Virus record (IMG/VR): IMGVR_UViG_2558860161_000007
Location: 1-31,841 of that record
DNA from: a virus
Taxonomy: Duplodnaviria > Heunggongvirae > Uroviricota > Caudoviricetes
DNA length: 31,841 bases
Reading direction: 5' to 3' (one strand)
Below the pieces are notes generated by a model, which made no database searches, was not told the DNA's origin, and saw only the letters and a list, made by a program, of their open reading frames with translations. The position numbers and the translations under genes are program-made. Below, piece by piece: positions 9,496 to 29,507 of the stretch (its first letter is position 1; each line of letters starts with the position of its first letter).

Positions 9496-11262
9496 ATGAA
9501 CACCACACTGACACCCGCAGATCTCGATCCCCGTCGGCAGGCCATGCTGCTGTACTTTCAGGGATACCGCGTCGCCCGCATTGCTGAAATGCTGGGCGAG
9601 AAAGTTGCAACCGTTCACAGCTGGAAAAAACGCGACAAGTGGGGTGACTATGGGCCGCTGGATCAGATGCAGCTCACCACCGCCGCACGCTACTGCCAGC
9701 TCATTATGAAGGAGCACAAAGAAGGGAAAGATTTCAAAGAAATTGACCTGCTGGCGCGCCAGTCGGAGCGCCACGCGCGGATCGGCAAGTTTAACAATGG
9801 CGGCAACGAAGCCGACTTAAACCCTAACGTCGCCAACCGCAACAAAGGCCCGCGCCGTCAGCCGGAAAAGAATGTTTTCACCGATGAGCAGATTGAGAAG
9901 CTGGAAGAAATCTTCCATTCCTCCATGTTTAACTACCAGCGCCACTGGTGGGAAGCCGGAAAAACCAACCGCATCCGCAACCTGCTGAAGTCACGCCAGA
10001 TCGGCGCGACCTTTTACTTTGCCCGTGAAGCCCTGATTGACGCTCTGCTTACCGGACGTAACCAGATTTTTCTTTCCGCCAGCAAGGCACAGGCTCACGT
10101 CTTTAAGCAGTACATCATAGACTTCGCCAAAGAAGTCGAGGTGGAGCTGAAAGGCGATCCGATGGTGCTTCCTAACGGAGCCACGCTTTACTTCCTCGGC
10201 ACCAATGCCCGCACGGCCCAGAGTTACCACGGCAACCTGTATCTGGATGAATATTTCTGGATACCGAAATTCCAGGAACTGCGCAAAGTTGCCTCCGGGA
10301 TGGCCATTCACAAGAAATGGCGACAAACCTACTTTTCCACGCCGTCCAGCCTTACCCACAGTGCCTATCCGTTCTGGTCCGGTGCGCTGTTTAACCGGGG
10401 CCGCGCCAAAGCGGACAAGGTGGATATTGACCTGACCCACAGCAATCTTGCGCGCGGCCTGCTCTGCCCTGACGGACAGTACCGCCAGATCGTCACCGTG
10501 GAGGATGCGGTGCGCGGCGGCTGTAACCTGTTCGACCTCGACCAGCTGCGCATGGAGTACAGCCCGGACGAATACCAGAACCTGCTGATGTGCGAATTTA
10601 TTGACGATTTGGCGTCAGTATTCCCGCTCAGCGAACTGCAGGCATGCATGGTGGACAGCTGGGAAGTCTGGACCGATTTTCAGGCTCTGGCGCTGCGCCC
10701 GTTTGGCTGGCGCGAGGTCTGGATCGGATACGACCCGGCGAAAGGCACGCAGAACGGTGACAGCGCCGGGTGCGTGGTGGTGGCACCGCCAGCCGTGCCG
10801 GGCGGCAAGTTCCGCATTCTGGAGCGACACCAGTGGCGCGGGATGGACTTCCGCGCCCAGGCTGACGCCATTAAAAAACTGACGCAGCAGTACAACGTGA
10901 CATACATCGGTATCGACTCGACCGGCGTTGGTCACGGGGTTTATGAGAACGTGAAAGCGTTCTTTCCTGCCGTGCGGGAGTTTGTCTACAACCCCAACGT
11001 CAAAAACGCCCTGGTGCTCAAGGCCTACGACATCATCAGCCACCGCCGTCTGGAGTTTGACGCCGGACACACTGACATTGCGCAGTCATTCATGGCAATC
11101 CGTCGCGCAACCACCGCCAGCGGCAACCGCCCGACCTATGAAGCCAGCCGCAGCGAAGAAGCCAGCCACGCCGATCTGGCCTGGGCAACAATGCACGCAC
11201 TGTTTAACGAACCGCTGCAGGGCGAATCCGCCAATACCAGCAATATTGTGGAGATTTTTTGA
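9496..11262 (+). CDS. P: Terminase large (ATPase) subunit P (P2 gpP-like)
   Basis: 588-aa ORF, nearly the P2 P length; Walker-A-like KSRQIGAT motif; overall resemblance. Confidence 0.9.
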   Translation: MNTTLTPADLDPRRQAMLLYFQGYRVARIAEMLGEKVATVHSWKKRDKWGDYGPLDQMQLTTAARYCQLIMKEHKEGKDFKEIDLLARQSERHARIGKFNNGGNEADLNPNVANRNKGPRRQPEKNVFTDEQIEKLEEIFHSSMFNYQRHWWEAGKTNRIRNLLKSRQIGATFYFAREALIDALLTGRNQIFLSASKAQAHVFKQYIIDFAKEVEVELKGDPMVLPNGATLYFLGTNARTAQSYHGNLYLDEYFWIPKFQELRKVASGMAIHKKWRQTYFSTPSSLTHSAYPFWSGALFNRGRAKADKVDIDLTHSNLARGLLCPDGQYRQIVTVEDAVRGGCNLFDLDQLRMEYSPDEYQNLLMCEFIDDLASVFPLSELQACMVDSWEVWTDFQALALRPFGWREVWIGYDPAKGTQNGDSAGCVVVAPPAVPGGKFRILERHQWRGMDFRAQADAIKKLTQQYNVTYIGIDSTGVGHGVYENVKAFFPAVREFVYNPNVKNALVLKAYDIISHRRLEFDAGHTDIAQSFMAIRRATTASGNRPTYEASRSEEASHADLAWATMHALFNEPLQGESANTSNIVEIF

Positions 11263-12305
11263 TGAGTGAACCCGAAGCCTTAACCAGCACAACGCTAACA
11301 GAAGCTACGGCACCGAAAAACACAGGCGTAAGTGCCGAGGCTTTCAGCTTTGGCGATCCGATCCCGGTACTGGACCGCCGCGAGCTGCTGGACTATGTGG
11401 AATGCGTACAGATGGACAGATGGTATGAACCGCCGGTCAGTTTTGATGGGCTGGCTCGCACCTATCGCGCCGCCGTACATCACAGCTCACCGATTGCCGT
11501 CAAACGCAACATTCTGACCAGTACATTTATCCCACATCCATTACTGAGCCAGCAGGCATTCAGCCGCTTTGTGCAGGACTATTTGGTGTTTGGTAACGCT
11601 TATCTGGAGAAACGAACGAACCGGCTCGGCGGCATTCTGTCGCTGGAGCCATCGCTGGCGAAATACACCCGCCGCGGGATCGACTTAGACACCTACTGGT
11701 TTGTGCAATACGGTCTAACCACGCAGCCCTACGAGTTCACTAAAGGCAGTATCTTTCACCTGATGGAGCCGGACCTGAACCAGGAAATTTACGGCCTGCC
11801 GGAATATCTGTCCGCCATTCCGTCCGCCTTGCTGAACGAGTCCGCTACGCTGTTCCGGCGTAAATACTACATCAATGGCAGTCATGCAGGGTTCATCATG
11901 TATATGACCGACGCCGCGCAGAACCAGGAGGACGTGAACAACATCCGCCAGGCCATGAAAAGCGCCAAAGGGCCAGGGAACTTCCGCAACCTGTTTATGT
12001 ACTCGCCGAACGGTAAAAAGGACGGCATCCAGATCATCCCGTTATCGGAGGTTGCGGCGAAAGACGAGTTTCTGAACATCAAGAACGTCAGCCGCGATGA
12101 CATGATGGCAGCGCACCGCGTACCGCCGCAGATGATGGGTATTATTCCCAACAATACCGGCGGCTTTGGTGATGTGGAAAAGGCCAGCCGTGTCTTTGTT
12201 CGCAACGAGCTGATGCCGCTGCAGAAGCGACTGCAGGAGCTTAACGACTGGCTTGGCGAAGAAGTGATCCGCTTCGAAGCCTACACATTAGATGTTCAGG
12301 AGTAA
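11259..12305 (+). CDS. Q: Portal protein Q (P2 gpQ-like)
   Basis: 348-aa ORF overlapping the P stop (ATGA); size and synteny as in P2. Confidence 0.9.
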   Translation: MMSEPEALTSTTLTEATAPKNTGVSAEAFSFGDPIPVLDRRELLDYVECVQMDRWYEPPVSFDGLARTYRAAVHHSSPIAVKRNILTSTFIPHPLLSQQAFSRFVQDYLVFGNAYLEKRTNRLGGILSLEPSLAKYTRRGIDLDTYWFVQYGLTTQPYEFTKGSIFHLMEPDLNQEIYGLPEYLSAIPSALLNESATLFRRKYYINGSHAGFIMYMTDAAQNQEDVNNIRQAMKSAKGPGNFRNLFMYSPNGKKDGIQIIPLSEVAAKDEFLNIKNVSRDDMMAAHRVPPQMMGIIPNNTGGFGDVEKASRVFVRNELMPLQKRLQELNDWLGEEVIRFEAYTLDVQE

Positions 12306-12315
12306 CAAAAGAAAA

Positions 12316-12336
12316 AGGCGCTCATATTGAGCGCCT
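12316..12336 (-). terminator. Stem-loop with flanking A/T tracts, likely rho-independent terminator for the leftward cargo operon (possibly bidirectional)
   Basis: Inverted repeat aggcgctca-tat-tgagcgcct; on the - strand it is followed by a T-rich run, immediately after the stop of the 112-aa gene. Confidence 0.5.
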
Positions 12337-12355
12337 CTGCATTTCAGACAAAGTA

Positions 12356-12694
12356 TCAGCAGACGGCATATACACCATCAAATCCAACAGAAGGCACCTT
12401 CTTTGATGCTACTTCATTGCTACGACGCTGGATCACCTTTGCAATACTTTTTAAAATTGAAGGGGATGCATTGCGAACCTTTACCTGGCTCAAAACTTTG
12501 GTTACGCCGAATTTCACAACCAAAACACCAAAGATTTCATCAGAGTATGATTCTGAAATTGAATAAACGCCGCTCAAATCCAAATCAACAAAGTTCCCCT
12601 CATTGATGAGAACTTCAATCTTGTGCCGTTGGGGGATAGCCTGATTGCGCGAAGCCAGGTCACCCTCGGGCAACTTGTATGCAATTTTATTCAT
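12356..12694 (-). CDS. Small STAS-like (anti-sigma-factor-antagonist-like) protein; second gene of a two-gene cargo operon
   Basis: 112-aa ORF; segment FVDLDLSGVYSISESYSDEIFGVLVVKFG resembles the STAS/SpoIIAA-type core; AGGAGG Shine-Dalgarno inside the end of the upstream gene, and its start overlaps that gene's stop. Confidence 0.55.
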   Translation of the reverse strand: MNKIAYKLPEGDLASRNQAIPQRHKIEVLINEGNFVDLDLSGVYSISESYSDEIFGVLVVKFGVTKVLSQVKVRNASPSILKSIAKVIQRRSNEVASKKVPSVGFDGVYAVC

Positions 12695-13815
12695 TACTCT
12701 CCTCCTAACGCCCGCATGATTTCCATAAGTTGAGGGTCATTTTCTTCGTTATCGTAATCTTTATCGATCGCCAGTTCATGAATCTTAAAACGGCATGAAA
12801 TTGCCACACCTGACCACTCTTTATGCAATTCAGTGTAGCTCAATTGATCACCAACTGCCTCTAAGCATACATTTCCTGTAGCCAGTTGCAATTCCCCGTT
12901 GTATGTTTTTACCAATTTCATCAAGTGATATAGACCAAGCCCTTGATGATTATTCTCTTTTTCTTTAACTGCTACCGGAACACTTGCACCAAAGACGCTT
13001 CCACCCATATTGTCATACGGCAATTGCTGTGCCCAATCATCTATCAGATCAGCATGTTTAGATGAGTTACCTTCTTGTATACACCATGCTATGGCATCAC
13101 GATGATTGTCAATTCCTTTGATGCCTGCGCGCCTTAACTCTCTAAAAAACCCCATGCCACAGTCTGCAAGAGCAAACTCAAGATAATGCTCTTTTCCACC
13201 GGTTCTTGGTACTGCCCATTTTTGCGCAAAAGAAAAACCGGTATCCCTACCATGCGACCAGACGTTGTCGTGTAACTCACCAACCACACGTGTGAGATCG
13301 TTTATCCCTTGAGGATAAACCTTCCTCTCAGGGAATGTTAATTGCCTAATACAGCTATTTATACTTGAAGTAGCTGAATCGACTGCTTCAACATTCTTCA
13401 GAGCTGTCACAAGGCTGTAGTTGGTTCCGACATTAACTCTTTTTTGGTCATAACGGTCTTCCCCCCAAACAGCTTTGTGCAGACCAATGGCATTCATGTA
13501 ACCTGCGCCAGGTAAGTTGCAAGCATCTTCTGACAGCTTATTGTGATTTATATAAGCAGCCAAGACAGCAATATAGCCAGGGTGACAATGGTCATTCGGT
13601 AAAAGCAATTTCCCCTCACCACGATCATGAAATATAGCAATGCGGTGAATACCATCTTTTAGACCAAATCCCATTGACCAATCTCCACGAAAAATTTCCC
13701 CTATAATATCGCCTGGGAAAACTGAGCGCAAAGTAAAGCACTTAACCAAGCTTGCGCGCGCTCGTATCCCCGCCACGCCTGCCCGCTTTATGTAGTGGTT
13801 TTCATGCACCTGCAT
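12694..13815 (-). CDS. GHKL-superfamily (histidine-kinase-like) ATPase domain protein; first gene of the two-gene cargo operon
   Basis: 373-aa ORF with N-box-like VVGELHDNVWSHG, G1-like LADCGMGF and G2-like HQGLGLYHL in canonical order. The first ~27 codons overlap the cos-like site; an alternative start at Met48 (~13674) has a GGAG Shine-Dalgarno. The region is lower in GC than flanking phage genes. Confidence 0.6.
   Translation of the reverse strand: MQVHENHYIKRAGVAGIRARASLVKCFTLRSVFPGDIIGEIFRGDWSMGFGLKDGIHRIAIFHDRGEGKLLLPNDHCHPGYIAVLAAYINHNKLSEDACNLPGAGYMNAIGLHKAVWGEDRYDQKRVNVGTNYSLVTALKNVEAVDSATSSINSCIRQLTFPERKVYPQGINDLTRVVGELHDNVWSHGRDTGFSFAQKWAVPRTGGKEHYLEFALADCGMGFFRELRRAGIKGIDNHRDAIAWCIQEGNSSKHADLIDDWAQQLPYDNMGGSVFGASVPVAVKEKENNHQGLGLYHLMKLVKTYNGELQLATGNVCLEAVGDQLSYTELHKEWSGVAISCRFKIHELAIDKDYDNEENDPQLMEIMRALGGE
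13761..13800. other. cos-like site (cohesive-end region) of the P2/186-type prophage
   Basis: Reverse complement reads GGCGTGGCGGGGATACGAG, resembling the 19-nt P2/186 cohesive-end core as I recall it; the flank is homologous to two repeats in the satellite (24567..24640, 24878..24960). Confidence 0.5.
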
Positions 13816-13983
13816 GATCTACGCAAAAGCCCACCAGTTCTGGCGGGCCTTAGCAAAAACGATCCTCAAACGATCATGCGATCTCATGCGGCATAGACAT
13901 GCACTACAGAGCTAACGCCTCGCAAGGGCTCGTTGTTCAACCTTGCTGACGCCAGAAACAAGTTCAGACGCCAGCAACGTTTC

Positions 13984-14217
13984 TTAATGCAGCCAGCTGT
14001 CGTCTTCCCACACCTTCTGCATAATTTTCATCACTTGCTTCCTTTCTTCGTCCAGTTGCAGTCCGGTCAGTTCCACACCGTTAGAGCTACCTTTGCGGAT
14101 ACGAATTACCGTTTTGGGATACAGGGGGCGCAGATTACGGTAAAGCTCGGATTCAAGGGCGTCCAGGGTAGACTGGCTAATCTTCTGCTCTTTATCGATC
14201 ATTATTTCAATGCGCAT
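13984..14217 (-). CDS. DinI-family protein (SOS-regulated; DinI/Tum-C-terminal-like)
   Basis: From MRIEIMIDKEQKISQSTLDALESELYRNL...VWEDDSWL, which resembles E. coli DinI; GAGGTG Shine-Dalgarno before this Met; the ORF track extends it to 14289. Confidence 0.7.
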   Translation of the reverse strand: MRIEIMIDKEQKISQSTLDALESELYRNLRPLYPKTVIRIRKGSSNGVELTGLQLDEERKQVMKIMQKVWEDDSWLH

Positions 14218-14569: not shown

Positions 14570-16984
14570 TTAATACAGGTTTCGCCACTTATCATCTTCC
14601 TGCAAACGCTGGTTCCGATAGAAGATACGCAGGCCTGCTCCTGACGGAATACTGCCGCCGCGAAGGAGTAAATCGACCTCTTTCTCGCTACCATCAAACC
14701 CTCTGGACTTCAGCTCATACACGAGCTGCTGTCGCTGATGGTCTGTAATTCGCTGTTTGTAGTCTTTACGCCGTTTCGGTTTAACCAGGTGTAACCTTGC
14801 TGCCAGTTCCCGGCGTTCTTTTTTGCTCATACTGTGCAGGTAATCGTGCAACTCCTTGTCATCCATGCGGGTGATATCCGTTCTGGTATCCCCATCAGCT
14901 GATTTGTCTTTCCCTTGTTGGTTCAAATTTTCAGCAAGGGGACAGTTATTGCCACGAGTCCAAGGGGCGCAAGCGCCCTGGTCGGCTGCCGCCTCCTGAA
15001 CGTCAACGGCCTTACGAACCATTTTCCACTTCACTGCATGAGTGCAGATCTTGCCCTCTGCAATGGGTGACCAGATGCCATAAATACGAATACCGTGATC
15101 GCCATAGGCGGTTGGCTCTTCGTTGATTTCATAAGCGGTTCTGATGAGGTGATATTTGCGGGGAACCAGTACGCCGCCCTGCTTCATGATGTAGGTGGCA
15201 AAACAACCAGCATCAGCAGCAGCCAGGATGGCATCAAGGCGCGGGTTATCCAGTACCGGCGCACCTGCTTTTTTGTCCCCCTTTTGCCTTGCCGCCTGAC
15301 CAGCCAGCAATCGCAGTTCACGGTAAGCCTGACGCCCCGGAATGCCAAAGAAGCGGAATTGCTGAACACGATGCAAAGACGCCCAGGCATTCACGTATTC
15401 AGCGTTATCACGCAGAGATTTACCCGTTTCCTTGCTGATCTCGCCAGCCAGACCACGCCCGTCAATGTTCTTACTGATGTATTTCGCTATGTAGCTTGTC
15501 GGCGTTCCTTTGCGCGGGTTAATCAGCTCAGACTTAAAGCGCGGCCCCGTGTTATTGCCCAGCTCCTCGCGGTCTTCACGGATAGCAAACTTACGCAACA
15601 ATGCTGTAATGGCGCGGCGGTCTTTTTTGCGCATGAAACACAACAGGTGCCAGTGAACTGTGCCGTCGTGATGCGGCTCAGCCACCCGCACGCCATACCA
15701 GCGCAACCCGGCTTTGTGCATCGCCTTACGAAATGCAGCAAACATACCGACCAGATAATCGCTGCTTTGTCTTACCGTCGCATTTGTCCAGGTCGGGTTG
15801 GGCCTGCCGTTGTTGAGCGTGGAATGGAAACGTGACGGACAGGTGATAGTGTAGAAAACGGCGCAGTCACCGCGCATTTCCGCGATAAGCTCCAGACCTT
15901 TAACACAGGCCATCATCTCATTGCGGCGATGCGCAGGGTTGCTGCTGCTGGCGTTTACCACATCCTCCATGTCCAGCGTGTCGCCGTCTTCGTTCACCAG
16001 TTCATGAGAACGGAAAAACTCCAGCGACTTACGGCGCTGCTCACGTTTATGCATCACGGCTTCATAGCTGACATAGGGAGATGCTTTTTTGCTGACCAGG
16101 CAGACAGCACGCAACTGCTCTTCCCGCCATTCGCAACGCATCTTCCATAATTTCCGATACCACCAGTCGGCGCACAGCATACGCGCCAGCGAACCCGGAA
16201 TGAGTTCATAGGGCACGGGTTTACGGCGGTTTCTTTTCCGACGGAGTTGCTCAAACGCAGGTGGGATGACATCCAGACGCAGGGTTTCCGCCGCCACCTT
16301 TTCCCATGTCTTGCGGATTTCTTCTGGCTTAACGTCATCGGTGGCATACAAATCGCCACAAGCTGCATCAAGGCACATGCTCATATGCGCAGCTACCAGG
16401 GTGGACAGGCGTTTCACCTGATCCTGACTCATTTCAGGCAGGATCAGCAGGCCCTCCAGCCCTTGATGGCTTGCCATAAAACGGAAAGAAGCAGACAGCT
16501 GACTGTCACGTACACAATCCAGTCGCTCCAGACATGGCTTAATCGTCTCACGCAAATAGCGGGAATAAGCCTTTGGCCTGCCCAGGCTGCTGAAGTATTC
16601 GATACGTTGCATCAGCGGCTTGCTGATATGGGAAGGCTGGGCGCTGACGTCCGCCAGAATGACCATGTCCGGGTTAAAACGCTGCTGTTCATGCGCCAGC
16701 TTTGCCCGGCTAATGAGCTTATCCTGCTCCATTTCGCGCTGGACAGGATCACGAGATTCATTAAAGAAATAACGCTCCCAGACCTGCTCACTCAGTGCAT
16801 CGCGGCACAGCTGTTCCTGCTCATTATCGGCAGCGTACAGAGTGATCAGGTTTAAAAGTGCAGACTCCGGAGCAACTTCCGCCGGGTCCAGATAAGGGTT
16901 AATGGCCTTTTTCGGGCCGTTCCATGAAAATGCTGCAGCGGCCTCGTTAAAGCCGCTAGAGTTGCTCATATCGTCATGACTCAT
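14570..16984 (-). CDS. A: Replication initiation protein A (rolling-circle endonuclease, P2 gpA-like)
   Basis: 804-aa ORF; HWHLL-type motif ([10 protein letters not shown]) and general resemblance to P2/186 A. Confidence 0.9.
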
Positions 16985-20419: not shown

Positions 20420-21445
20420 ATGACCATCAGAAAACAGCCGAACGGAAAGTGGTTATGTGAATGCTACCCAAACGGGAGAGATGGCAAACGCGTACGCAAA
20501 CAATTTGCGACGAAAGGCGAAGCCATTGCGTTTGAGAATTTCACCATGGATGAGGTAAACAAGAAACCTTGGCTGGGAGAAAAGGAAGATCGGCGACAAC
20601 TGTCAGAAGTGATTGAGCAATGGTATTCCCTGTACGGTCAGACACTCGCTGACCCTAAGCGATTAATGGCTAAGTTAAAAATCATTTGTAATGGACTTGG
20701 CGATCCCATCGCTTCTGAATTGACAGCAGGTGATTTCACAAAGTACCGGGAAGCCAGATTAAAAGGTGAGGTCAAAAACGAAGATGGCGTGCTCATGTCA
20801 CCGGTTAAGCCCAGAACGGTGAACCTTGAACAGCGTAACCTATCCTCAGTTTTTGGCACACTGAAAAAGCTGGGACATTGGTCTGCACCCAACCCCCTCG
20901 CCGGTCTGCCAACTTTCAAAATTGCAGAAGGTGAACTGGCGTTCCTTGCTGCTGATGAAATCAAACGCCTGCTTGACGCATGTGCTGAATCTCAAAGTCC
21001 CAGTCTGCTAATGATTGCCAAGATTTGCCTGGCTACCGGGGCAAGATGGAGCGAAGCCGAAAACCTGCAAGGTAACCAGATATCAAAGTATCGAATTACC
21101 TATACCAAAACAAAAGGAAAGAAAAACCGAACTGTTCCTATTTCTCAGGAACTGTATGAAGAATTACCCAAAAACAGAGGAAAGTTATTCACACCATGCC
21201 GAAAGGCTTTTGAGCGTGCGGTAAAACGAGCTGGAATTGAACTACCTGAAGGTCAATGTACCCACGTTCTGCGCCACACTTTCGCCAGTCACTTTATGAT
21301 GAACGGCGGAAACATTTTGGTATTGAGGGATATTTTAGGACACGCTGATATTAAAATGACCATGATTTATGCCCATTTTGCACCGGATCATCTGGAAGAT
21401 GCCGTTACCAAAAATCCACTTCATAACCTCAACTGGCATCGCTAA
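20420..21445 (+). CDS. int: Tyrosine integrase (P2/186 family)
   Basis: 341-aa ORF; C-terminal catalytic region HVLRHTFASHF...LGHADIKMTMIYAH with the conserved R, H-x-x-R and Y; adjacent to the att core. Confidence 0.9.
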   Translation: MTIRKQPNGKWLCECYPNGRDGKRVRKQFATKGEAIAFENFTMDEVNKKPWLGEKEDRRQLSEVIEQWYSLYGQTLADPKRLMAKLKIICNGLGDPIASELTAGDFTKYREARLKGEVKNEDGVLMSPVKPRTVNLEQRNLSSVFGTLKKLGHWSAPNPLAGLPTFKIAEGELAFLAADEIKRLLDACAESQSPSLLMIAKICLATGARWSEAENLQGNQISKYRITYTKTKGKKNRTVPISQELYEELPKNRGKLFTPCRKAFERAVKRAGIELPEGQCTHVLRHTFASHFMMNGGNILVLRDILGHADIKMTMIYAHFAPDHLEDAVTKNPLHNLNWHR

Positions 21446-21562
21446 TAAATGGCGGCATTTTGGCGGCAGAACACTAAAAACAAGTAAAACAAGCAAATAC
21501 AGACTAACACTAACACAATGATTTAAAATAAAAAAATATGATTTTGTTAGTATAAAAATGGT

Positions 21563-21607
21563 ATGTAGGAATTTCGGACGCGGGTTCAACTCCCGCCAGC
21601 TCCACCA
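21563..21607 (+). other. ssrA: Attachment-site core identical in character to the 3' end of tmRNA (ssrA), ending ...GGTTCAACTCCCGCCAGCTCCACCA
   Basis: The ~45-nt atgtaggaatttcggacgcgggttcaactcccgccagctccacca matches my recollection of the enterobacterial tmRNA 3' terminus; upstream is AT-rich phage DNA and the int stop, so only a 3' fragment is present. Confidence 0.65.
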
Positions 21608-21791: not shown

Positions 21792-22991
21792 GTGGCACGG
21801 ACAACTCGCCCCCTAACCAACACCGAAGTTCTGCGCGCGAAAGCGTTAGAGAAGGATCTAACGCTGCATGATGGTGATGGGCTTTTCCTGATAGTGAAAA
21901 CTAGCGGCAAGAAACTCTGGCGCTTTCGCTATCAACGCCCAGCAACAAAACAACGGACTATGATGGGACTTGGTGCTTTTCCTGCCCTTTCTCTTGCTGA
22001 TGCCCGAGGGTTAAGAGCAGATTACCTTGCCCTATTAGCCAACGGAATCGACCCGCAAATTCAAGCTGAAGTTGCAGAGGAACAGCAGCAAATCGCTCTG
22101 GACAGTATTTTTTCGACGGTCGCCGCTAACTGGTTCCAGCTCAAAAGCAAAAGCGTTACCCCTGATTACGCTAAAGATATATGGCGTTCACTGGAAAAAG
22201 ACGTATTTCCAGCTATCGGTGAGACCCCTGTCCAGCAAATCAAAGCCCGAACACTGGTTGAAGCCCTTGAACCGATCAAAGCACGTGGGGCGCTGGAGAC
22301 AGTTCGTAGACTGGTACAGCGTATCAACGAAATAATGATTTATGCGGTTAACACTGGCTTGATTGATGCCAACCCCGCATCAGGTATTGGTATGGCTTTT
22401 GAGAAACCCAAAAAGCAAAACATGCCGACGTTGCGACCAGAAGAATTGCCTAAGCTGATGCGTTCGCTAGTCATGTCAAATCTATCTGTTCCGACTCGCT
22501 GTCTTATTGAGTGGCAACTCCTGACGCTCGTGCGCCCTTCTGAGGCTTCAGGTGCTCGATGGGCTGAGATCGATCTCAATGCCAAACTCTGGACAATTCC
22601 AGCCGAACGAATGAAAGCTAAACGTGAACATATAGTACCTCTATCTACACAGGCGTTAGAGATTCTAGAAGTGATGAAGCCAATCAGTGCTCATCGCGAA
22701 CATGTTTTTCCGAGCAGGAACGACCCCAAAAAATCAATGAACAGCCAAACGGCAAACGCTGCCTTAAAACGCATAGGCTATGGAGGTAAGCTTGTTGCTC
22801 ATGGTCTACGTTCTATAGCGAGTACAGCTCTTAATGAAAATGGTTTTAATCCAGATGTAATTGAAGCAGCATTAGCACATTCGGATAAGAATGAAGTAAG
22901 ACGTGCATATAATCGTTCTACCTATTTAGAACAACGTCATGAGTTAATGAATTGGTGGGGTTGTAAAGTTTGCCCTACCAATTCATTATAA
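21792..22991 (+). CDS. int: Tyrosine integrase (P4/CP4-57 family) of the satellite element
   Basis: 399-aa ORF (GTG start); N-terminal arm-binding-type region (GDGLFLIV...KLWRFRY) and C-terminal catalytic region (AHGLRS...ALAHSDKNEVRRAYNRSTY). Confidence 0.9.
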   Translation: MARTTRPLTNTEVLRAKALEKDLTLHDGDGLFLIVKTSGKKLWRFRYQRPATKQRTMMGLGAFPALSLADARGLRADYLALLANGIDPQIQAEVAEEQQQIALDSIFSTVAANWFQLKSKSVTPDYAKDIWRSLEKDVFPAIGETPVQQIKARTLVEALEPIKARGALETVRRLVQRINEIMIYAVNTGLIDANPASGIGMAFEKPKKQNMPTLRPEELPKLMRSLVMSNLSVPTRCLIEWQLLTLVRPSEASGARWAEIDLNAKLWTIPAERMKAKREHIVPLSTQALEILEVMKPISAHREHVFPSRNDPKKSMNSQTANAALKRIGYGGKLVAHGLRSIASTALNENGFNPDVIEAALAHSDKNEVRRAYNRSTYLEQRHELMNWWGCKVCPTNSL

Positions 22992-23002
22992 GATAAAACA
23001 GA

Positions 23003-24421
23003 TCATACTTTACCGGGGTATGTTTTAAACATACTCCTTAATACGTCAAATGTCTGTTCACCTATGATTGAAAATTCTTTAATCATTTCCATTAAGTTAT
23101 TTCGGCTAATCAAGAAAATATACAAACCTTGATCTTTCGATATTTCTTTCACTCTATCAAGATACTTTTCCTCGGCAGAATTTTCGCAGAATATTAAACC
23201 TATCTTAGAATTACATTCTTCGACTTTTCTAAGTGTAGTATAAATATGTTCCTCGTTCAATTTATGCTGAGGATCAATGACATTTACAACTATCAACTCT
23301 GAAATAATGTTGTACACTGAAAAATCGAAAAAGAAACCTTTCTTAGCCTCATTAATTAATGAAAAGAGGCAGCACTGTTCATCCTCACTTATTAATTTGG
23401 GGTAAAACAAGCTAGGATAGAAGATTGAAATCAATATTTTCTTGTATGCTTTAGTGTAATTACTAAAGTCGTTGTTTTTAATTGATAAATCAATATCTTT
23501 CATTAGATCTTTTATGGGGAGAATTACAGGATCTTCATCCTTATCAAAATCACTATGCGCTAGAGGATTCGGAGGATTAATCTCCAGCTCTTTTTTATAT
23601 TCTTTCAAGGTGTTAGGGTATTTTACGAGCTGAGACTCGATAAATCCCTTAGTCTGACCATACTCATCAATGATACTTGTTGTGGTAACAATCCGCTCCC
23701 CTTTAAGCACTTTAACTAATGCCGAGCCAGAGCTTATCAATTCCTTTTTCATTTCCGGAATAATATGCCTCCGATATAAATCCCTATGTGAATAGATTAT
23801 CTCTTCACGTGCAAGTATCTTAGGAATAAGGATAATCTCCTCGCCTTCATAAACAGGGAGATGAAAACGATTTTTATGCCATTTACTACTAACCTTATCC
23901 CACGTTTTGACTTCTGAAACCTCTTTAGTCTCAATGCCGTAAAATATACAAATATCCTTTGTATATTCTATAAAAAAACCTTTGAGAATATTACAAACTG
24001 AATCCGATATTCGGTCAGAACCAATACCTGGGATAGTCAGAGCTGTATCTTCTAGATCAGTTAATATTCCTGATTTTGCAGCCTGACTACTCTTTAGAGA
24101 ATCCAAAATATCTTCAGCAGTTTTTTCACCAAGAGCAGTTCCGGATGATTCTTTTGTTGAATATCCTAAATGAAAGGCATTGGTCTCTCTTAGTGATGAC
24201 AATAAATAAGCAGCTTTTTTAAAATTATTATTCTTTATAGACGCCATTATTTCTGTAAAATAGTCTTGTAACGCGTAAACTAAATCCTGCCCCCATTGGG
24301 ATTTTAAAACCTTTATAGATGTTGGATCTAAAAAAAACCTTAAATCAGTATGCAGAGGAATATCCAAAAAATCTAACGCTACTTGTCTGCCTTCAACTCC
24401 AAAAGCCTCTGAAAACCTCAT
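23003..24421 (-). CDS. Hypothetical AT-rich cargo protein (~472 aa) in the satellite int-cos hotspot
   Basis: ORF 23003..24448; likely start is the ATG at ~24421 with a GGAG Shine-Dalgarno. GC is markedly lower than its neighbours, it is convergent with int, and I recognise no domain by eye. Confidence 0.55.
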   Translation of the reverse strand: MRFSEAFGVEGRQVALDFLDIPLHTDLRFFLDPTSIKVLKSQWGQDLVYALQDYFTEIMASIKNNNFKKAAYLLSSLRETNAFHLGYSTKESSGTALGEKTAEDILDSLKSSQAAKSGILTDLEDTALTIPGIGSDRISDSVCNILKGFFIEYTKDICIFYGIETKEVSEVKTWDKVSSKWHKNRFHLPVYEGEEIILIPKILAREEIIYSHRDLYRRHIIPEMKKELISSGSALVKVLKGERIVTTTSIIDEYGQTKGFIESQLVKYPNTLKEYKKELEINPPNPLAHSDFDKDEDPVILPIKDLMKDIDLSIKNNDFSNYTKAYKKILISIFYPSLFYPKLISEDEQCCLFSLINEAKKGFFFDFSVYNIISELIVVNVIDPQHKLNEEHIYTTLRKVEECNSKIGLIFCENSAEEKYLDRVKEISKDQGLYIFLISRNNLMEMIKEFSIIGEQTFDVLRSMFKTYPGKV

Positions 24422-24566
24422 GTAACACTCCTTTACAATAATCAACATAAAAACAAGAGCATTCTTATTTTTATAGCAAAGGTGGTTTAATCACAAGATC
24501 TTATGAATTGAGCAACAATAATTATCCCTATTTTTTGAAGCTGACGAACATTTCACGTTGCGTACA

Positions 24567-24640
24567 GAGCTTTCCCCGCCTCGCCTGCACGCCTCGTGGG
24601 TCTGTTTTAATGCAGTTGCTTTGCGAGGCTCAGGCTGCCA
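24567..24640. repeat. cos-like repeat copy 1 (P2-type variant)
   Basis: Reverse complement reads GGCGAGGCGGGGAAAGCTC; homologous to copy 2 and to the helper cos-like region. Confidence 0.5.
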
Positions 24641-24877
24641 CAGACTCGAATACGTCAAGGGAATAGCAGCTTTAGAAGCGACGTAATGAACGCCAGAATG
24701 ACTAGTTTCCTCCACCGCCGGGCGGCCTTTTCTTGCACTTCTCCTGACCACCTCAGGGCTCTCCACGCCCTCGAACAGCACCGCACCACCCACCGACACT
24801 CCCGAGAACCCGCGCAGTACAGCGACGCACTCAGGCCGCGAAATTAAATATAATTAAATACTTTACCGCTGGCGCGC

Positions 24878-24960
24878 AATGCTCTCCCCGCCACGCCTGC
24901 CCGCTTCCCGGGGCGCTTTTAATGCAGGTGCATGAAGAGGCTCAGGCCGCGCCAGTGCTG
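24878..24960. repeat. cos-like repeat copy 2 (variant closest to the resident helper)
   Basis: Reverse complement reads GGCGTGGCGGGGAGAGCAT; the flank (ctgcccgctt...ttttaatgcaggtgcatga) aligns with the helper region at 13761..13815. Confidence 0.5.
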
Positions 24961-25061
24961 GTGCGACAGAGTGTGGAAAATTCAGGGTTTTGCATGCAAA
25001 GCCATGCAGCGTAGGCATGCATGGCTATTTTTATTAAAAAGACGGGTATTTTCGGGGCGTT

Positions 25062-25637
25062 TTATGCGGATTTTTTGCGGGTCTGCGCGGCCTGTCGGCG
25101 CATGAAAATCTGACTCTGTTCAGGCGTATATTTTGCCCGGTTGTCGTCTCTCGATGCTCTGTCAGGCCGGAAACCGATGGTTGTCAGAATGTCGCGATCA
25201 TCCTCTGCGTAATCAATATTTCCTCCGCGGGTTACATAAACGGACAGCGCTTCGCGAACACTGGCGGCCGCCCGGTCGAGAGCACGTTCTCTGACAATGT
25301 CAGGTTGTTCGCTGAGATGCATTAATTCCGGTGCCAGTGCGGCGGCCAGCGCGTCGCCGCTTACCTGCATAAAGGCGTGGAGCTGACACCGGATACTGAT
25401 ACGCTGCACGGCCTCATGTGACCGGATGTACTGCCCGGCCGACTGATTTACCGCCCATTTTTTCAGGTCAATATCATCCCGCAGCGCCTGTGCGGCCTCC
25501 GGTTCATAACGGGTGCAGGTCAGCTCCAGCTCCTTCAGCGCCATTTCTGCCCGCGCCAGTGCTGACTTGCTGCTCATCCAGTCCGATTTATTCTTCTGAC
25601 AGGTTTCAAAGGCCTGTTCCAGTAGTGCTCGTGCCAT
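25062..25637 (-). CDS. psu: Psu-like polarity suppression / capsid decoration protein
   Basis: 191-aa ORF; conserved AGQYIRSHEAVQ.ISIR and ILTTIGFRPD segments, as I recall for P4 Psu (190 aa). Confidence 0.8.
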   Translation of the reverse strand: MARALLEQAFETCQKNKSDWMSSKSALARAEMALKELELTCTRYEPEAAQALRDDIDLKKWAVNQSAGQYIRSHEAVQRISIRCQLHAFMQVSGDALAAALAPELMHLSEQPDIVRERALDRAAASVREALSVYVTRGGNIDYAEDDRDILTTIGFRPDRASRDDNRAKYTPEQSQIFMRRQAAQTRKKSA

Positions 25638-25653
25638 TGTCTTTTCTCCTGAA

Positions 25654-25896
25654 TCAGTGGCGCAGCGATGACCGGGCGCAGTCCAGAATTCGGGGCGGTG
25701 TTTCTGGTACTGTTTGTGGTGGTTCGGGCTTTTCTTCTGCCGGTGGCCGTATCACCTCGTCGATAGACTCGGTGGTGCGAAAGGTTGCGGAGCAAAAGAC
25801 ATTCACGCACTGGAGGTAGCTCTGTTTGACGTTATCTGACAGGTAACGGCTGGTACGGACATGGGCAGCCTGTTTGCAGTACGGGCAGCGCATCAT
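25654..25896 (-). CDS. delta: Delta/Ogr-family zinc-finger late transcription activator
   Basis: 80-aa ORF starting MMRCPYC with CPYC...C..C..CSATF, the hallmark of Ogr/Delta. Confidence 0.85.
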   Translation of the reverse strand: MMRCPYCKQAAHVRTSRYLSDNVKQSYLQCVNVFCSATFRTTESIDEVIRPPAEEKPEPPQTVPETPPRILDCARSSLRH

Positions 25897-26696
25897 GGCT
25901 TAACCCCCCGCGTTTTTTTCTTCTGTGCCAGCTCTTTAGCCCGCGCCATTCTGAGAACAGGGCTTTTATAGAGTTTCATATCCACGCCGGTGAGTGCCGG
26001 ACGGTGAAGCCCAATTTTTGAAATTACTGGTTCATGCTCCATGTTGAATGTGTAGTACCTGCTTTGCGCCAGTACATTCTCACCCAGCTCCTGAATGAGA
26101 ACGTTGTGAGGGTGTTCTTCTCCCTTAATCTCGAGCTCACGCAGACGTAACGCAAATGCGCGCACCAGTGAGGGAGGGATGTCTTTCATCACGGTCGCCC
26201 ACTCATTCCGGGAGTAGGCAGAGAACACCGTAAAATGCGTGCCGACGTACTTATCTCCTGATGTACAGGCGGACAGCATGGTACTGGCCTTATCATCGTT
26301 GAGTTCATCAATCAGGGCGGTGAATTCCTCCGCCAGCTCCCGACCGGCCACTCGCTGACTGTGTTCGGCTTTCAGTTCCGGGGTCATCATGCCGCGCAGT
26401 TCGCGAAAACGGGTACGCCAGTTCTGTTCGGCTTCGGCACTTTCATTCAGGGCGTTCTGACGCTCTTTCTCACTGCGGGCAATGGCCGCATCAATATCAT
26501 TCAGCTTCAGCATGTTTTCCGTGTGCGCGGATTTGGCCTTGCTGAACACATCAAGAGCGTTATTTATCGTGGCCTCGGCGTTCTGGTTTGCTTTCTCGTT
26601 AAGGGTATCCAGTGCGCTGTCAATGGCCGTGCGGATGTTCTCATCCTGCGTGCTGCCGATGGTTTTCATTACTGCGGTAAACAAATCTGGTTTCAT
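25893..26696 (-). CDS. sid: Sid-like capsid size determination protein (putative)
   Basis: 267-aa helical/charged protein in the sid position of the psu-delta-sid operon; assigned by synteny and character, not strong sequence recall. Confidence 0.5.
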   Translation of the reverse strand: MKPDLFTAVMKTIGSTQDENIRTAIDSALDTLNEKANQNAEATINNALDVFSKAKSAHTENMLKLNDIDAAIARSEKERQNALNESAEAEQNWRTRFRELRGMMTPELKAEHSQRVAGRELAEEFTALIDELNDDKASTMLSACTSGDKYVGTHFTVFSAYSRNEWATVMKDIPPSLVRAFALRLRELEIKGEEHPHNVLIQELGENVLAQSRYYTFNMEHEPVISKIGLHRPALTGVDMKLYKSPVLRMARAKELAQKKKTRGVKP

Positions 26697-26770
26697 CGTC
26701 GGGTTCTCTCTGTGTTTTCAACCTGACGCCATTCTGCCGTCCCTCAGACAACAACTCGATTCATTGCCGT

Positions 26771-26788
26771 TGTAGCAGACATGGCACA
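26771..26788. promoter_or_regulatory. TGT-N12-ACA dyad upstream of the sid operon (candidate Psid activator site)
   Basis: tgtagcagacatggcaca, ~83 bp upstream of the sid-like start. Confidence 0.4.
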
Positions 26789-26864
26789 AACAGGACTTAA
26801 AAACCCGGCTGGCCAGAGAAAGGTCGCAGGAAACCCCCTCTCTCTGTTTGTTTTTTTACATATA

Positions 26865-26970
26865 ACTATTCACTACTGTTCACTCAGAATAAAAATATAA
26901 GTAAAACAATAAATTAAAGAGTGAACAGTTGAGAGGGAAGTGTTCACCAACTGTTCACTACTGTTCACTG
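26865..26970. promoter_or_regulatory. Cluster of CTGTTCAC repeats (five or more copies, both orientations) in the satellite divergent regulatory region
   Basis: ctattcactactgttcactcag ... gagtgaacagttgag ... tgttcaccaactgttcactactgttcactgg, read directly. Confidence 0.35.
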
Positions 26971-27247
26971 GTCTGAACATCCCGAATGTAAATTTTATGC
27001 GGTATGTCCTATTAATTCATGCTGTTAGGGTGATTAAATCAATTTGCATTTCACTTTTGAAATCTCCAGTGCCTTATAACTCCTTCCAGTGCCTTTAAAT
27101 GGTCTTGAGTAAAAAAACAGCACCCGTTGTCCCGTGCTTTGTACAATTTCCCCCTGTTGCATTGAGAAAAAATATTCACAAAATAGAGCGCTACCTGATA
27201 CCGGACGGACACGTCCGGATCTCTGCGGATATTAACGAGGTAGCGTT

Positions 27248-27514
27248 ATGCACACAGTTTCATCAGTACCATCGTCCCCCACAACCGCGCACCTGATGCC
27301 GGTTTCAGCCCCGGCTCAGGAACGTTTTTTACGTCTCCCGGAAGTCATTCATCAGTGCGGTCTGTCCCGCTCCACGCTCTACGATTTAATTGCCCGCAAT
27401 GCTTTCCCGGCGCAGGTTTCCCTCGGGGGTAAAAATGTCGCCTGGCTGCAGTCTGAAATCACAGCGTGGATGGCAGAACGTGTCGCGCACCGCAACCGGA
27501 AATACGACGCATGA
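27248..27514 (+). CDS. AlpA/Vis-family HTH transcriptional regulator
   Basis: 88-aa ORF containing [29 protein letters not shown], the AlpA-type helix-turn-helix; GAGG Shine-Dalgarno upstream. Confidence 0.7.
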
Positions 27515-27549
27515 ATCAGAGCCGATTTCACAAAGCCCCTTTTTCTGGC

Positions 27550-27665
27550 TTGCATCCGTTGTGTGTTTCCTGGTACAGTTTTGTCGCTGTCGCAAAATCG
27601 ACAGCCGGGCGTGGAAACCCGAGCAACTCGAAGGCGACACCAGACGCGCCATGCGTCTTTTTTTG
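27550..27665 (+). ncRNA. Candidate small structured RNA (promoter-hairpin-terminator unit) in the satellite immunity-region position
   Basis: TTGCAT-18 bp-TACAGT promoter-like hexamers, hairpin gctgtcg-caaaat-cgacagc, then stem agacgc-gccat-gcgtct followed by TTTTTTT; the long overlapping ORFs here lack convincing starts. Confidence 0.3.
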
Positions 27666-27912
27666 TGTCGCAACTAACGCCACAGAGCGCCAGATAATGG
27701 CGTGGTGTGCGGATCGTCGTGCAGACGTCACTTTGTGTCTCCTGTCCGCAATCGCATATCATGCTGTCATGTCAATGGTAGCTCAGGCGGGGCAGCCCTC
27801 GGGCTGGCCGGTATTCTTCGAGGCCGGTATTTCCACCCCCGTCTGGGCTATCGCCACTGAGCGTGGAAACTCCGGCGATAGCAATAATTTGCTACTCGAA
27901 GGAGGTTGCCTT

Positions 27913-28110
27913 ATGGCTACGACCCTCACTCCGTCTCACCCGCAGTTTGTCTTTGTGTTTGCCGCCGTCCGTCGCGCAGACCGTAAGCCCCGTATCTGTA
28001 TGCTCCGCACCGTTGCCGGTGACGAGCTGGCCGCCCGCCGCACCCTTGTCCGCGAATACGTGCTTTCCCTTGCCGCCCGTCTGCCGGTTCTGGAGGTGTC
28101 ACATGCATAA
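27913..28110 (+). CDS. Hypothetical small protein (65 aa)
   Basis: ATG preceded by a GGAGG Shine-Dalgarno (gaaggaggttgccttATG); terminates with an overlap on the next start. Confidence 0.45.
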
Positions 28111-28402
28111 TAAAAATACCCCTCAGACCGTCTCAGCGCGTCGTGATGACCTTAACCCCATGAAGGAACACCTCAGCATAGAGGCGTACCATAAACTCAA
28201 TCGCGCCAGCGCCGTCTCACAGTTCGTGGGAGGAGATTTGCTGCGCCGTGAACTGAACGGTTTACACCAGCTATACCTGCCGCAGATTTTTAGTTATATC
28301 CATGAGGACGTCAGCTACGTCCTGGAAGAGCTGAAAGCCAAAGGCCTGTGCCGTGACTTTCTCGCCACGACGTCGGGAAACGGAGGTGAGCACCATGTTT
28401 GA
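28103..28402 (+). CDS. Hypothetical protein (99 aa)
   Basis: ATG (MHNKNTPQ...) preceded by GGAGGTG; lies within the longer 27863..28402 track ORF. Confidence 0.5.
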
Positions 28403-28844
28403 TTTCCCTCAGCCGGGTGAAACATATCGCTGTACAGGATTTCCTGATGTGGTGGTGTCGGGCGTGCTGGCCGACGGTATTCCGTGGGATATGCCGTACC
28501 GCTGTCCGGGGCTGGTCTGGAACCCGTACCGGCGCACCTACACCATCCTCATTCGTATTATTGCCGGTGGCAGCATGGCAGAAATTCCGCTCGGTCGTTT
28601 TTTGCGGGACTTTACCTGTGAGCATCCCGACGTATTTAAACGTAACCCTGAAAACCGCCACGCCGTATTACGCGAAATAGCGGCCGACCCGGCATTACAG
28701 CAATACCGGGCGCGGAATATCGATAACTATCCTGACGATATTCCCCCGGTTAAACGTCCGGCGCCGGTGGCGCATAAATGGCGGAATAATTTCAGACCGG
28801 AAACGGAAATAAAACCGGATAACAGCTACCGCCATTATCTGTAA
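28395..28844 (+). CDS. Hypothetical protein (149 aa)
   Basis: ATG ([11 protein letters not shown]...) preceded by GGAGGTGAGC; overlaps the previous stop. Confidence 0.5.
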   Translation: MFDFPQPGETYRCTGFPDVVVSGVLADGIPWDMPYRCPGLVWNPYRRTYTILIRIIAGGSMAEIPLGRFLRDFTCEHPDVFKRNPENRHAVLREIAADPALQQYRARNIDNYPDDIPPVKRPAPVAHKWRNNFRPETEIKPDNSYRHYL

Positions 28845-28915
28845 TTAAAAACGACACCCAAAAATAAAATGTGCGTATCTGCGCAGGGATACGCACGTCC
28901 TCAGGAGACGAAATA

Positions 28916-29176
28916 ATGCCTGTTAACAGTACGGAACGGCCGCAGAATACAAACCAGCCCATCATCAGCCGGGCAGACCTTGAATGTCTCGAACATATGC
29001 GCAACGTCGGCCAGCTCGTCGGCGACCTGATGCAGGTGCAGGACTGCACCTCTTTGCGCCACAACCCGGCGCAGCAACTACAGCTCACCTCGGTGATTTA
29101 CCTCATGACTGCCCGGCTCGACGGCGTGGTCGACCGCTGTAATCAGCGCTGGCTGACCGGGGAGGGCAACGTATGA
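28916..29176 (+). CDS. Hypothetical protein (86 aa)
   Basis: ATG (MPVNSTERP...) preceded by AGGAGA; a perfect hairpin gtgcgtatc-N8-gatacgcac lies just upstream. Confidence 0.45.
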
Positions 29177-29493
29177 AAAAGCCATTAACGCCCGTCTTAC
29201 GCGCCGCGCTCTATCGCCGTGCGGTCGCCTGTGCCTGGCTGACCCTGTGCGAAAGTCAGCACCGCTACCCGCAGCTCACGCTCAGTACGCTGGAAAGCGC
29301 CATTGCGACCGAGCTGGAGGGCTTCTACCTGCGCCAGCACGGCGAGGAAAAAGGCCGCCAGATTGCCTGTGCCCTGCTCGAAGATTTAATGGAAGCCGGA
29401 CCACTCAAGGCCGCCCCGTCGCTGTCCTTTCTCGGGCTGGCCGTGATGGATGAACTCTGCGCCCGCCATATCACCGCACCGGTACTGCACTGA
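29173..29493 (+). CDS. Hypothetical protein (106 aa)
   Basis: Start overlaps the previous stop (ATGA); immediately upstream of the primase gene. Confidence 0.5.
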
Positions 29494-29507
29494 GGGAGAA
29501 AATAACG

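Follow-up and report, generated by a model that had tools for sequence, protein, structure and literature searches.

Introduction

The locus described here raises the question of whether a cargo gene of a prophage can be cut in two at the cos site of the phage that carries it. The window (the whole stretch of viral DNA that was analysed, 31,841 nt) contains a gene for a kinase-like protein of the GHKL type, and the longest minus-strand open reading frame (ORF) over this gene was found, as the first-pass annotation had it, at 12694-13815 (373 aa, ATG 13815-13813), with its first codons passing through a cos-like sequence. If the ATG at 13815 were used, the gene would span cos, would be split in virion DNA and would be whole only when circularised or as a prophage. 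An internal start at Met48, about position 13674, had been favoured instead.

Results and discussion

The window holds a P2-family prophage with a map that is inverted relative to that of P2. The terminase gene P (9496-11262, plus strand) is followed by the portal gene, a homologue of P2 Q and 186 W (11259-12305, plus strand; Pfam Phage_portal and PGAP annotation), then by the cargo, cos, a DinI/Tum-like gene (13984-14217, minus strand; Pfam DinI, E = 1.2e-22; a 77-aa CDS in PGAP) that lies on the gpA side of cos and is read towards it, and the replication gene A (14570-16984, minus strand). This gene order bears out the earlier placing of the cargo operon between cos and Q, and a distance of 1456 bp separates the cohesive end from the portal stop codon (12305), in accord with the estimate of about 1.45 kb. 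The tum gene of 186 has the same map position as the DinI/Tum-like gene, and the presence of the latter by cos, together with a CI-type repressor, makes the prophage 186/Fels-2-like rather than strictly P2-like.

The cos-like assignment was examined by homology to P2 and 186 and was upheld. The 19-nt cohesive-end sequence GGCGTGGCGGGGATACGAG, at 13761-13779 (minus strand, 13779→13761), agrees at 15/19 positions with the cohesive end annotated for 186 and at 14/19 with that of P2, and the chance expectation of the core 13-mer GGCGWGGCGGGGA in the window is 0.00. The 19-mer is set in a conserved core (13754-13816), which reaches 7 nt (CGCGCGC) towards the portal gene and about 37 nt in the gpA direction. 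The cos sites of P2, 186 and P4 are described as having 19-nt 5′ cohesive ends within a core of about 55 bp (Ziermann & Calendar 1990, as cited in PMC5694545 and PMC9122126). In the window the 19-nt end is related to GGCG(A/T)GGCGGGGAAAGCA(C/T), the flanking core of about 55 bp is conserved on both sides of the nick sites, and the site lies between the gpA side and portal Q, downstream of the P-Q operon.

The window site was then aligned with those of P2, 186, SEN8, two P2-like elements from other bacteria (L011 and L013) and two sites from a neighbouring satellite. Three motifs were kept throughout: TGCAT.AAAAC...AGCGGGCA on the gpA side, GGCG(A/T)GGCGGGGA inside the 19-mer, and (C/T)GCGCGC (YGCGCGC) on the portal side. 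The cohesive end in the window finishes with the six bases TACGAG, compared with AAGCA(C/T) in P2 and 186, and this is the variant of the Fels-2/SEN8 type. As the window has TGCATGAAAAC instead of TGCATTAAAAC, one TAA is lost and a pseudo-ORF in the window reads on through the site.

Two records of related phages, SEN8 and Cartapus, label this variant cohesive end (…GGGGATACGAG) only as a ‘putative cos site’, and the SEN8 record begins exactly at the 19-mer. The exact nick positions are, therefore, taken from the homology with P2 and 186; staggered terminase nicks at 13760/13761 and 13779/13780 would yield 5′ overhangs. The cautious label and the six bases unlike those of P2 and 186 could also be taken to mean that the site has decayed in a defective prophage and is never cut, in which case its overlap with the ORF would be moot. 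This is very unlikely. The 19-mer is identical in Fels-2, SEN8 and phage records from Klebsiella and E. coli, and the 19-mer with its flank recurs unchanged or almost unchanged in dozens of phage records (Klebsiella, Salmonella, Escherichia, Yersinia) and is also present in about 1,280 E. coli chromosomes. The window retains every position that is conserved between P2, 186 and both satellite sites, and the genes around cos, P and Q for packaging and A for replication, are intact ORFs with strong family matches. Judged from its sequence, the segment 13735-13815 holds a cos site of the functional type, and the prophage is a 186/Fels-2-like member of the P2 family.

The gpA-side flank of cos ends in an inverted repeat, CATGCA-GG-TGCATG (13803-13816), that holds the ATG of the long ORF. 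The two central bases vary, being GG in the window, CC in E. coli EM06-18-14 (L006 3052-3067) and in satellite site A, TG in Citrobacter (L059 2573-2588) and AC in 186, but the arms CATGCA and TGCATG are mostly kept, with one arm base altered in Citrobacter. A variable centre between conserved arms is the pattern of a DNA site, CATGCA-NN-TGCATG, and not of coding sequence. The repeat may be a binding element for terminase or a host factor, and is offered as a candidate. A scan of 13500-14000 against Rfam (E ≤ 0.01) gave no RNA family.

The satellite is P4-like and lies directly beside the helper prophage (21792-31841), with genes for an integrase (21792-22991), Psu (25062-25637) and an alpha primase (29508-31841). 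Two cos-like 19-mers, GGCGTGGCGGGGAGAGCAT and GGCGAGGCGGGGAAAGCTC, are present in it on the minus strand, at 24567-24585 and 24879-24897; they are in direct orientation at a spacing of 312 bp, and each has a TGCATTAAAA flank. When complete E. coli genomes were searched, only the region around the first of these sites was found and no record had both; cargo swapping may have left the cos in duplicate. The hotspot adjacent to the satellite cos contains a 481-aa ORF (23003-24448, minus strand) for which no Pfam or NCBIfam match was obtained. A partial match to tmRNA (ssrA) at 21519-21607 is flanked by the integrase genes of the helper (20420-21445) and of the satellite; ARAGORN detected no intact tmRNA or tRNA there. 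The position of this partial ssrA between the two integrases suggests that helper and satellite integrated in tandem at the ssrA attachment site.

Attention was then given to the part of the long ORF above Met48, a 47-codon extension at 13675-13815 on the minus strand. The first-pass annotation had described about 27 codons as running through cos. An overlap does exist, but it is shorter than this: codons 1-21 are phage backbone that is independent of the cargo, and the 19-mer makes up codons 13-19. The extension is of two kinds of sequence, with a GC content of 0.60 in the backbone part (13753-13815) and 0.42 in the 78 nt (13675-13752) that form the leader and promoter of the cassette. The long ORF is likewise matched by PHROGs as two families, phrog_28685 over residues 1-22 and phrog_3364 over residues 48-359. 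The same backbone ATG and peptide MQVHENHYIKRAGVAGIRARA are found by cos in relatives that carry SEFIR, TIGR02391, Fels-2 STM2723.1 or a variant of the cassette, and in these relatives the frame stops after 22-45 codons.

The ATG at 13815 was searched for a Shine-Dalgarno sequence and none was seen. A few nucleotides before it is the end of the DinI/Tum-like transcript, where RNA folding predicts a hairpin followed by a U-run, resembling an intrinsic terminator (13825-13851, minus strand). The 56-nt segment that includes the hairpin (13815-13870) has a folding energy of -25.7 kcal/mol (z = -4.3), a value reached by 0/200 shuffled sequences, and the hairpin is kept in all relatives. Neither translation signals at the upstream ATG nor a promoter above it were found.

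The start at Met48 has the features that the upstream ATG lacks. The ATG at 13674-13672 is preceded, 8 nt upstream, by the Shine-Dalgarno sequence GGAG (13683-13686, minus strand), as had been reported, and is 87 bases past the cos cohesive end. In 101/120 homologues the start falls at query residues 47-49, with the sequence MG(L/F)GLKD. Conserved residues upstream of Met48 were sought among the homologues and none were found; a few homologues have extra N-terminal residues and these are unrelated to the extension in the window. The extension itself is shared only by a Citrobacter cluster that is 100% identical and has the same surroundings at cos, and was present in none of 119 non-identical homologues.

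These results were compared with a scan of loci using one genome per species, which gave 46 loci, only 2/46 of them P2-like; 42 independent loci were tabulated. In 41/42 the gene begins no further than about 5 codons from Met48, with the frame open for no more than 7 codons upstream; in one distant locus (L051) the open frame reaches 139 codons above the start. The extension was seen in 0/42, so that homologues with the long N-terminus outside a cos context, which would have spoken for it, did not appear. An E. coli prophage with an 83%-identical cassette and a different leader has many stops in frame above the Met. The description of 13815 as the annotated 5′ end has to be corrected, as in three E. 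coli genomes the RefSeq/PGAP gene encodes 326 aa and begins at the position that corresponds to 13674.

The possibility that the gene does begin at 13815 can be weighed on this evidence. The ORF is open and in frame from that position, and some pipelines call the identical cluster (P0001) in the long form. A run of 47 stop-free codons arises by chance, however, in 6.7% of shuffles and in 10% with uniform codons, so that in 7-10% of cases such a frame would be seen anyway. Codons 1-21 belong to the backbone whatever the cargo, the ATG is without a Shine-Dalgarno sequence and comes directly after a terminator, a conserved promoter lies downstream of it, PGAP uses Met48, and the extension is missing from every non-identical homologue and every tabulated independent locus. 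A start at 13815 is, on these grounds, close to impossible.

A second alternative is a start at an in-frame TTG, either codon 23 (13749) or codon 29 (13731), which would give a protein of 345-351 aa clear of the cohesive end. Both TTG codons are present, but neither has a Shine-Dalgarno sequence, the TTG at 13731 provides the first base of the conserved -35 hexamer described below, and no residues above Met48 are conserved in the homologues; such a start is extremely unlikely. Homologue starts, independent loci, PGAP and the Shine-Dalgarno sequence all agree on Met48, and the preference for an internal start was well founded. The real kinase-like gene is thus taken to be 12694-13674 (minus strand, 326 aa). 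Very probably the 373-codon ORF is a chance in-frame fusion, the real gene starts at ATG 13674 and the cos cut splits nothing. In this explanation a backbone pseudo-ORF (MQVHENHYIKRAGVAGIRARA...) would open at the ATG within the cos inverted repeat, stay open for 47 codons by chance in this cargo context and then meet the gene that starts at ATG 13674.

Other annotations are affected in the same region. In E. coli EcE.CRE.COL, PGAP has a pseudogene (‘hypothetical protein, internal stop’) across cos (L008 2969-3148; equivalent to 13707-13886 in the window), and a 397-aa over-extended form has been deposited for Citrobacter (the P0001 cluster, 59 member sequences). The long ORF, phrog_28685 and the PGAP pseudo-CDS across cos are best regarded as annotation traps.

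A candidate promoter for the cassette was located at 13703-13731 (minus strand), with -35 TTGCGC (13731-13726), a 17-nt spacer and -10 TATTAT (13708-13703). A consensus promoter scan from cos to Met48 at a threshold of 9/12 gave no site, the candidate scoring 8/12, and the promoter call rests on a phylogenetic footprint. The leaders of six cassettes with 58-100% protein identity, from both P2-like and non-phage contexts, were aligned. The leaders are divergent, and the conserved blocks are -35 TTTGC and, 17 nt on, -10 TAT.AT; invariance is otherwise confined to an AAA, the ATG and one G of the Shine-Dalgarno region. The conserved -35 and -10 blocks predict a transcript start near 13696, downstream of about codon 40 of the long ORF. 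From this footprint we infer that the cassette would be transcribed from this promoter.

The borders of the cassette were defined by comparison with relatives. Backbone homology to 86-91 phage records begins at 13747-13755 and, in seven different contexts, stops 7-10 bp past the cohesive end (CGCGCGC[AA]). The other border is at a hairpin terminator between the convergent portal gene and cassette (12314-12338); relatives with other cargo diverge directly after the portal stop, each with its own terminator. The cargo at the same junctions in relatives is SEFIR, TIGR02391, Fels-2 STM2723.1 or SEN8 HNH, so that variable gpA-gpQ genes share the same borders, as in a cos-adjacent cargo hotspot. The GC content of the cassette is 0.43, compared with about 0.54 in neighbouring phage genes. 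The two genes form an imported low-GC cassette with its own Shine-Dalgarno sequence, terminator and predicted sigma-70 promoter, and they fill the classical 186-type cargo slot, which opens 7-10 bp past the cohesive end and closes at the terminator of the portal gene.

As promoter, leader and both genes are on the portal side of the nicks, cos cleavage leaves them intact. The notion of a cargo gene split by cos and rejoined on circularisation was, accordingly, abandoned, gene and promoter both being downstream of the cut, and there is no circularisation-dependent gene at the window cos. That cargo starts 7-10 bp past the cohesive end implies that a cos site of the 186/Fels-2 type keeps little portal-side sequence, and a cargo-slot border known at base level is useful for the automatic delimiting of hotspot cargo.

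The suggestion that the cargo operon is the first DNA to enter a host found no support: a literature search that took in PMC2231350 gave nothing decisive on which end of P2 or 186 DNA is ejected first. The position of the cassette relative to the genome end is not conserved, since another P2-like element (L013) has the same cassette on the gpA side of cos. Small cargo is also seen on that side in close relatives, between DinI and cos: an extra 141-aa protein in E. coli EM06-18-14 (L006 3373-3798), whose N-terminus by eye resembles a signal peptide, and an extra 86-aa protein in Citrobacter (L059 2213-2473). It follows from these that cos accepts insertions on both flanks.

The 326-aa protein has a helical domain at its N-terminus and, besides this, a GHKL (Bergerat-fold) domain like those of SpoIIAB and RsbW. 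The motifs are E133-x3-N137, D171-x-G173-x-G175 and G245-L-G247-L (326-aa numbering), and the residues of the N box (ExxxN), G1 box (DxGxG) and G2 box (GxGL) are invariant in 26 sequences. The fold, too, is a Bergerat fold of the SpoIIAB/RsbW type. Membership of a named profile was not found: there was no match in Pfam (HATPase_c, E ≤ 0.1), NCBIfam or PADLOC, and a profile search of PDB sequences returned nothing at E ≤ 10.

The second gene of the cassette (12356-12694, minus strand) encodes a 112-aa STAS-like (DUF4325) partner and its start overlaps the stop of the kinase gene. It scores 37.6 bits with Pfam PF14213, above the gathering cutoff of 23 (E = 1.8e-9). In its motif DLSGVxSISESYxDE, S47 and D52 are present in 46/46 sequences and S49 in 45/46. 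We take the S47/S49/D52 motif to be at the position of SpoIIAA phosphorylation. The partner adjoins the kinase gene in 45/46 loci and no third gene is conserved. The two proteins are probably, on motif and pairing evidence, a kinase/STAS partner-switching pair. Kinase-substrate chemistry between them would be consistent with the fold, the pairing in 45/46 loci and the presence of Ser47/Ser49.

Two further observations were made on these proteins. The neighbours of non-phage copies include RM, PD-Lambda-1, mads, AriA, AbiLi, PDC and integrases, a list that is no more than suggestive. The STAS-like protein also has a weak PADLOC match to DISARM DrmA (residues 314-396 of a 1750-position model, E = 9e-7), which hints at a DUF4325-like module embedded in DrmA.

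A tentative reading of the cassette, to which we give somewhat less than an even chance, is that it is an autonomous partner-switching module for defence or lysogenic conversion, the kinase phosphorylating or sequestering the STAS protein on infection or DNA damage, and that it has spread in Proteobacteria under its own promoter. Spread of this kind would take the pair, with its kinase of novel N-terminal domain, into integrative elements and defence islands as well as the cos hotspots of P2-like phages, on either flank of cos. No record of a defence test for the kinase/STAS pair was found in the literature, and the cassette is a reasonable candidate for defence screening.

Comparison with known systems

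The map position of the window cos, with the gpA-side genes to one side and portal Q to the other, is that of the cos sites of P2, 186 and P4. The gpA-gpQ region is an established hotspot of P2 (Rousset et al. 2022, PMC9122126), and Table S5A of that paper lists the exact pair WP_016242317 + WP_016242316. The architecture is the same as in that hotspot; the cargo here, however, is a kinase/STAS pair and not a retron, old/tin or similar genes. The retrons Ec67 and Ec86 were described as cargo between cos and the portal terminator in 186-related prophages (Dodd & Egan 1996, as cited in PMC5694545). The cos site and the cargo architecture are, therefore, already known, and the overlap of gene and cos is an artefact of ORF calling. 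Like old and tin of P2, the genes in the window are accessory genes that lie by cos and have a promoter of their own, which in P2 is about 150 bp from the end of the genome, but old and tin are on the gpA side of cos and the window cargo is on the portal side.

The pair differs from SpoIIAB-SpoIIAA and RsbW-RsbV in that the cassette is without a sigma factor. The window kinase has an extra N-terminal domain of about 120 residues that SpoIIAB and RsbW do not have, and the partner belongs to DUF4325 and not, as SpoIIAA and RsbV do, to the canonical STAS family.

A further parallel is CapK-CapS (Chambers et al. 2026, PMC13373217), a pair that precedes an immune operon and in which CapK is HTH-STAS-GHKL and CapS is STAS-wHTH. 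In both cases a GHKL protein resembling an anti-sigma kinase is followed by a STAS protein on mobile or immune loci. The identification of the cassette as CapK-CapS, taken from its description, was nevertheless rejected on domain architecture. In the window the partner is a bare STAS protein of 112 aa, a search for HTH domains gave no hits, and the cassette is followed by the portal gene in convergent orientation, with no downstream operon of the kind that CapK-CapS precedes.
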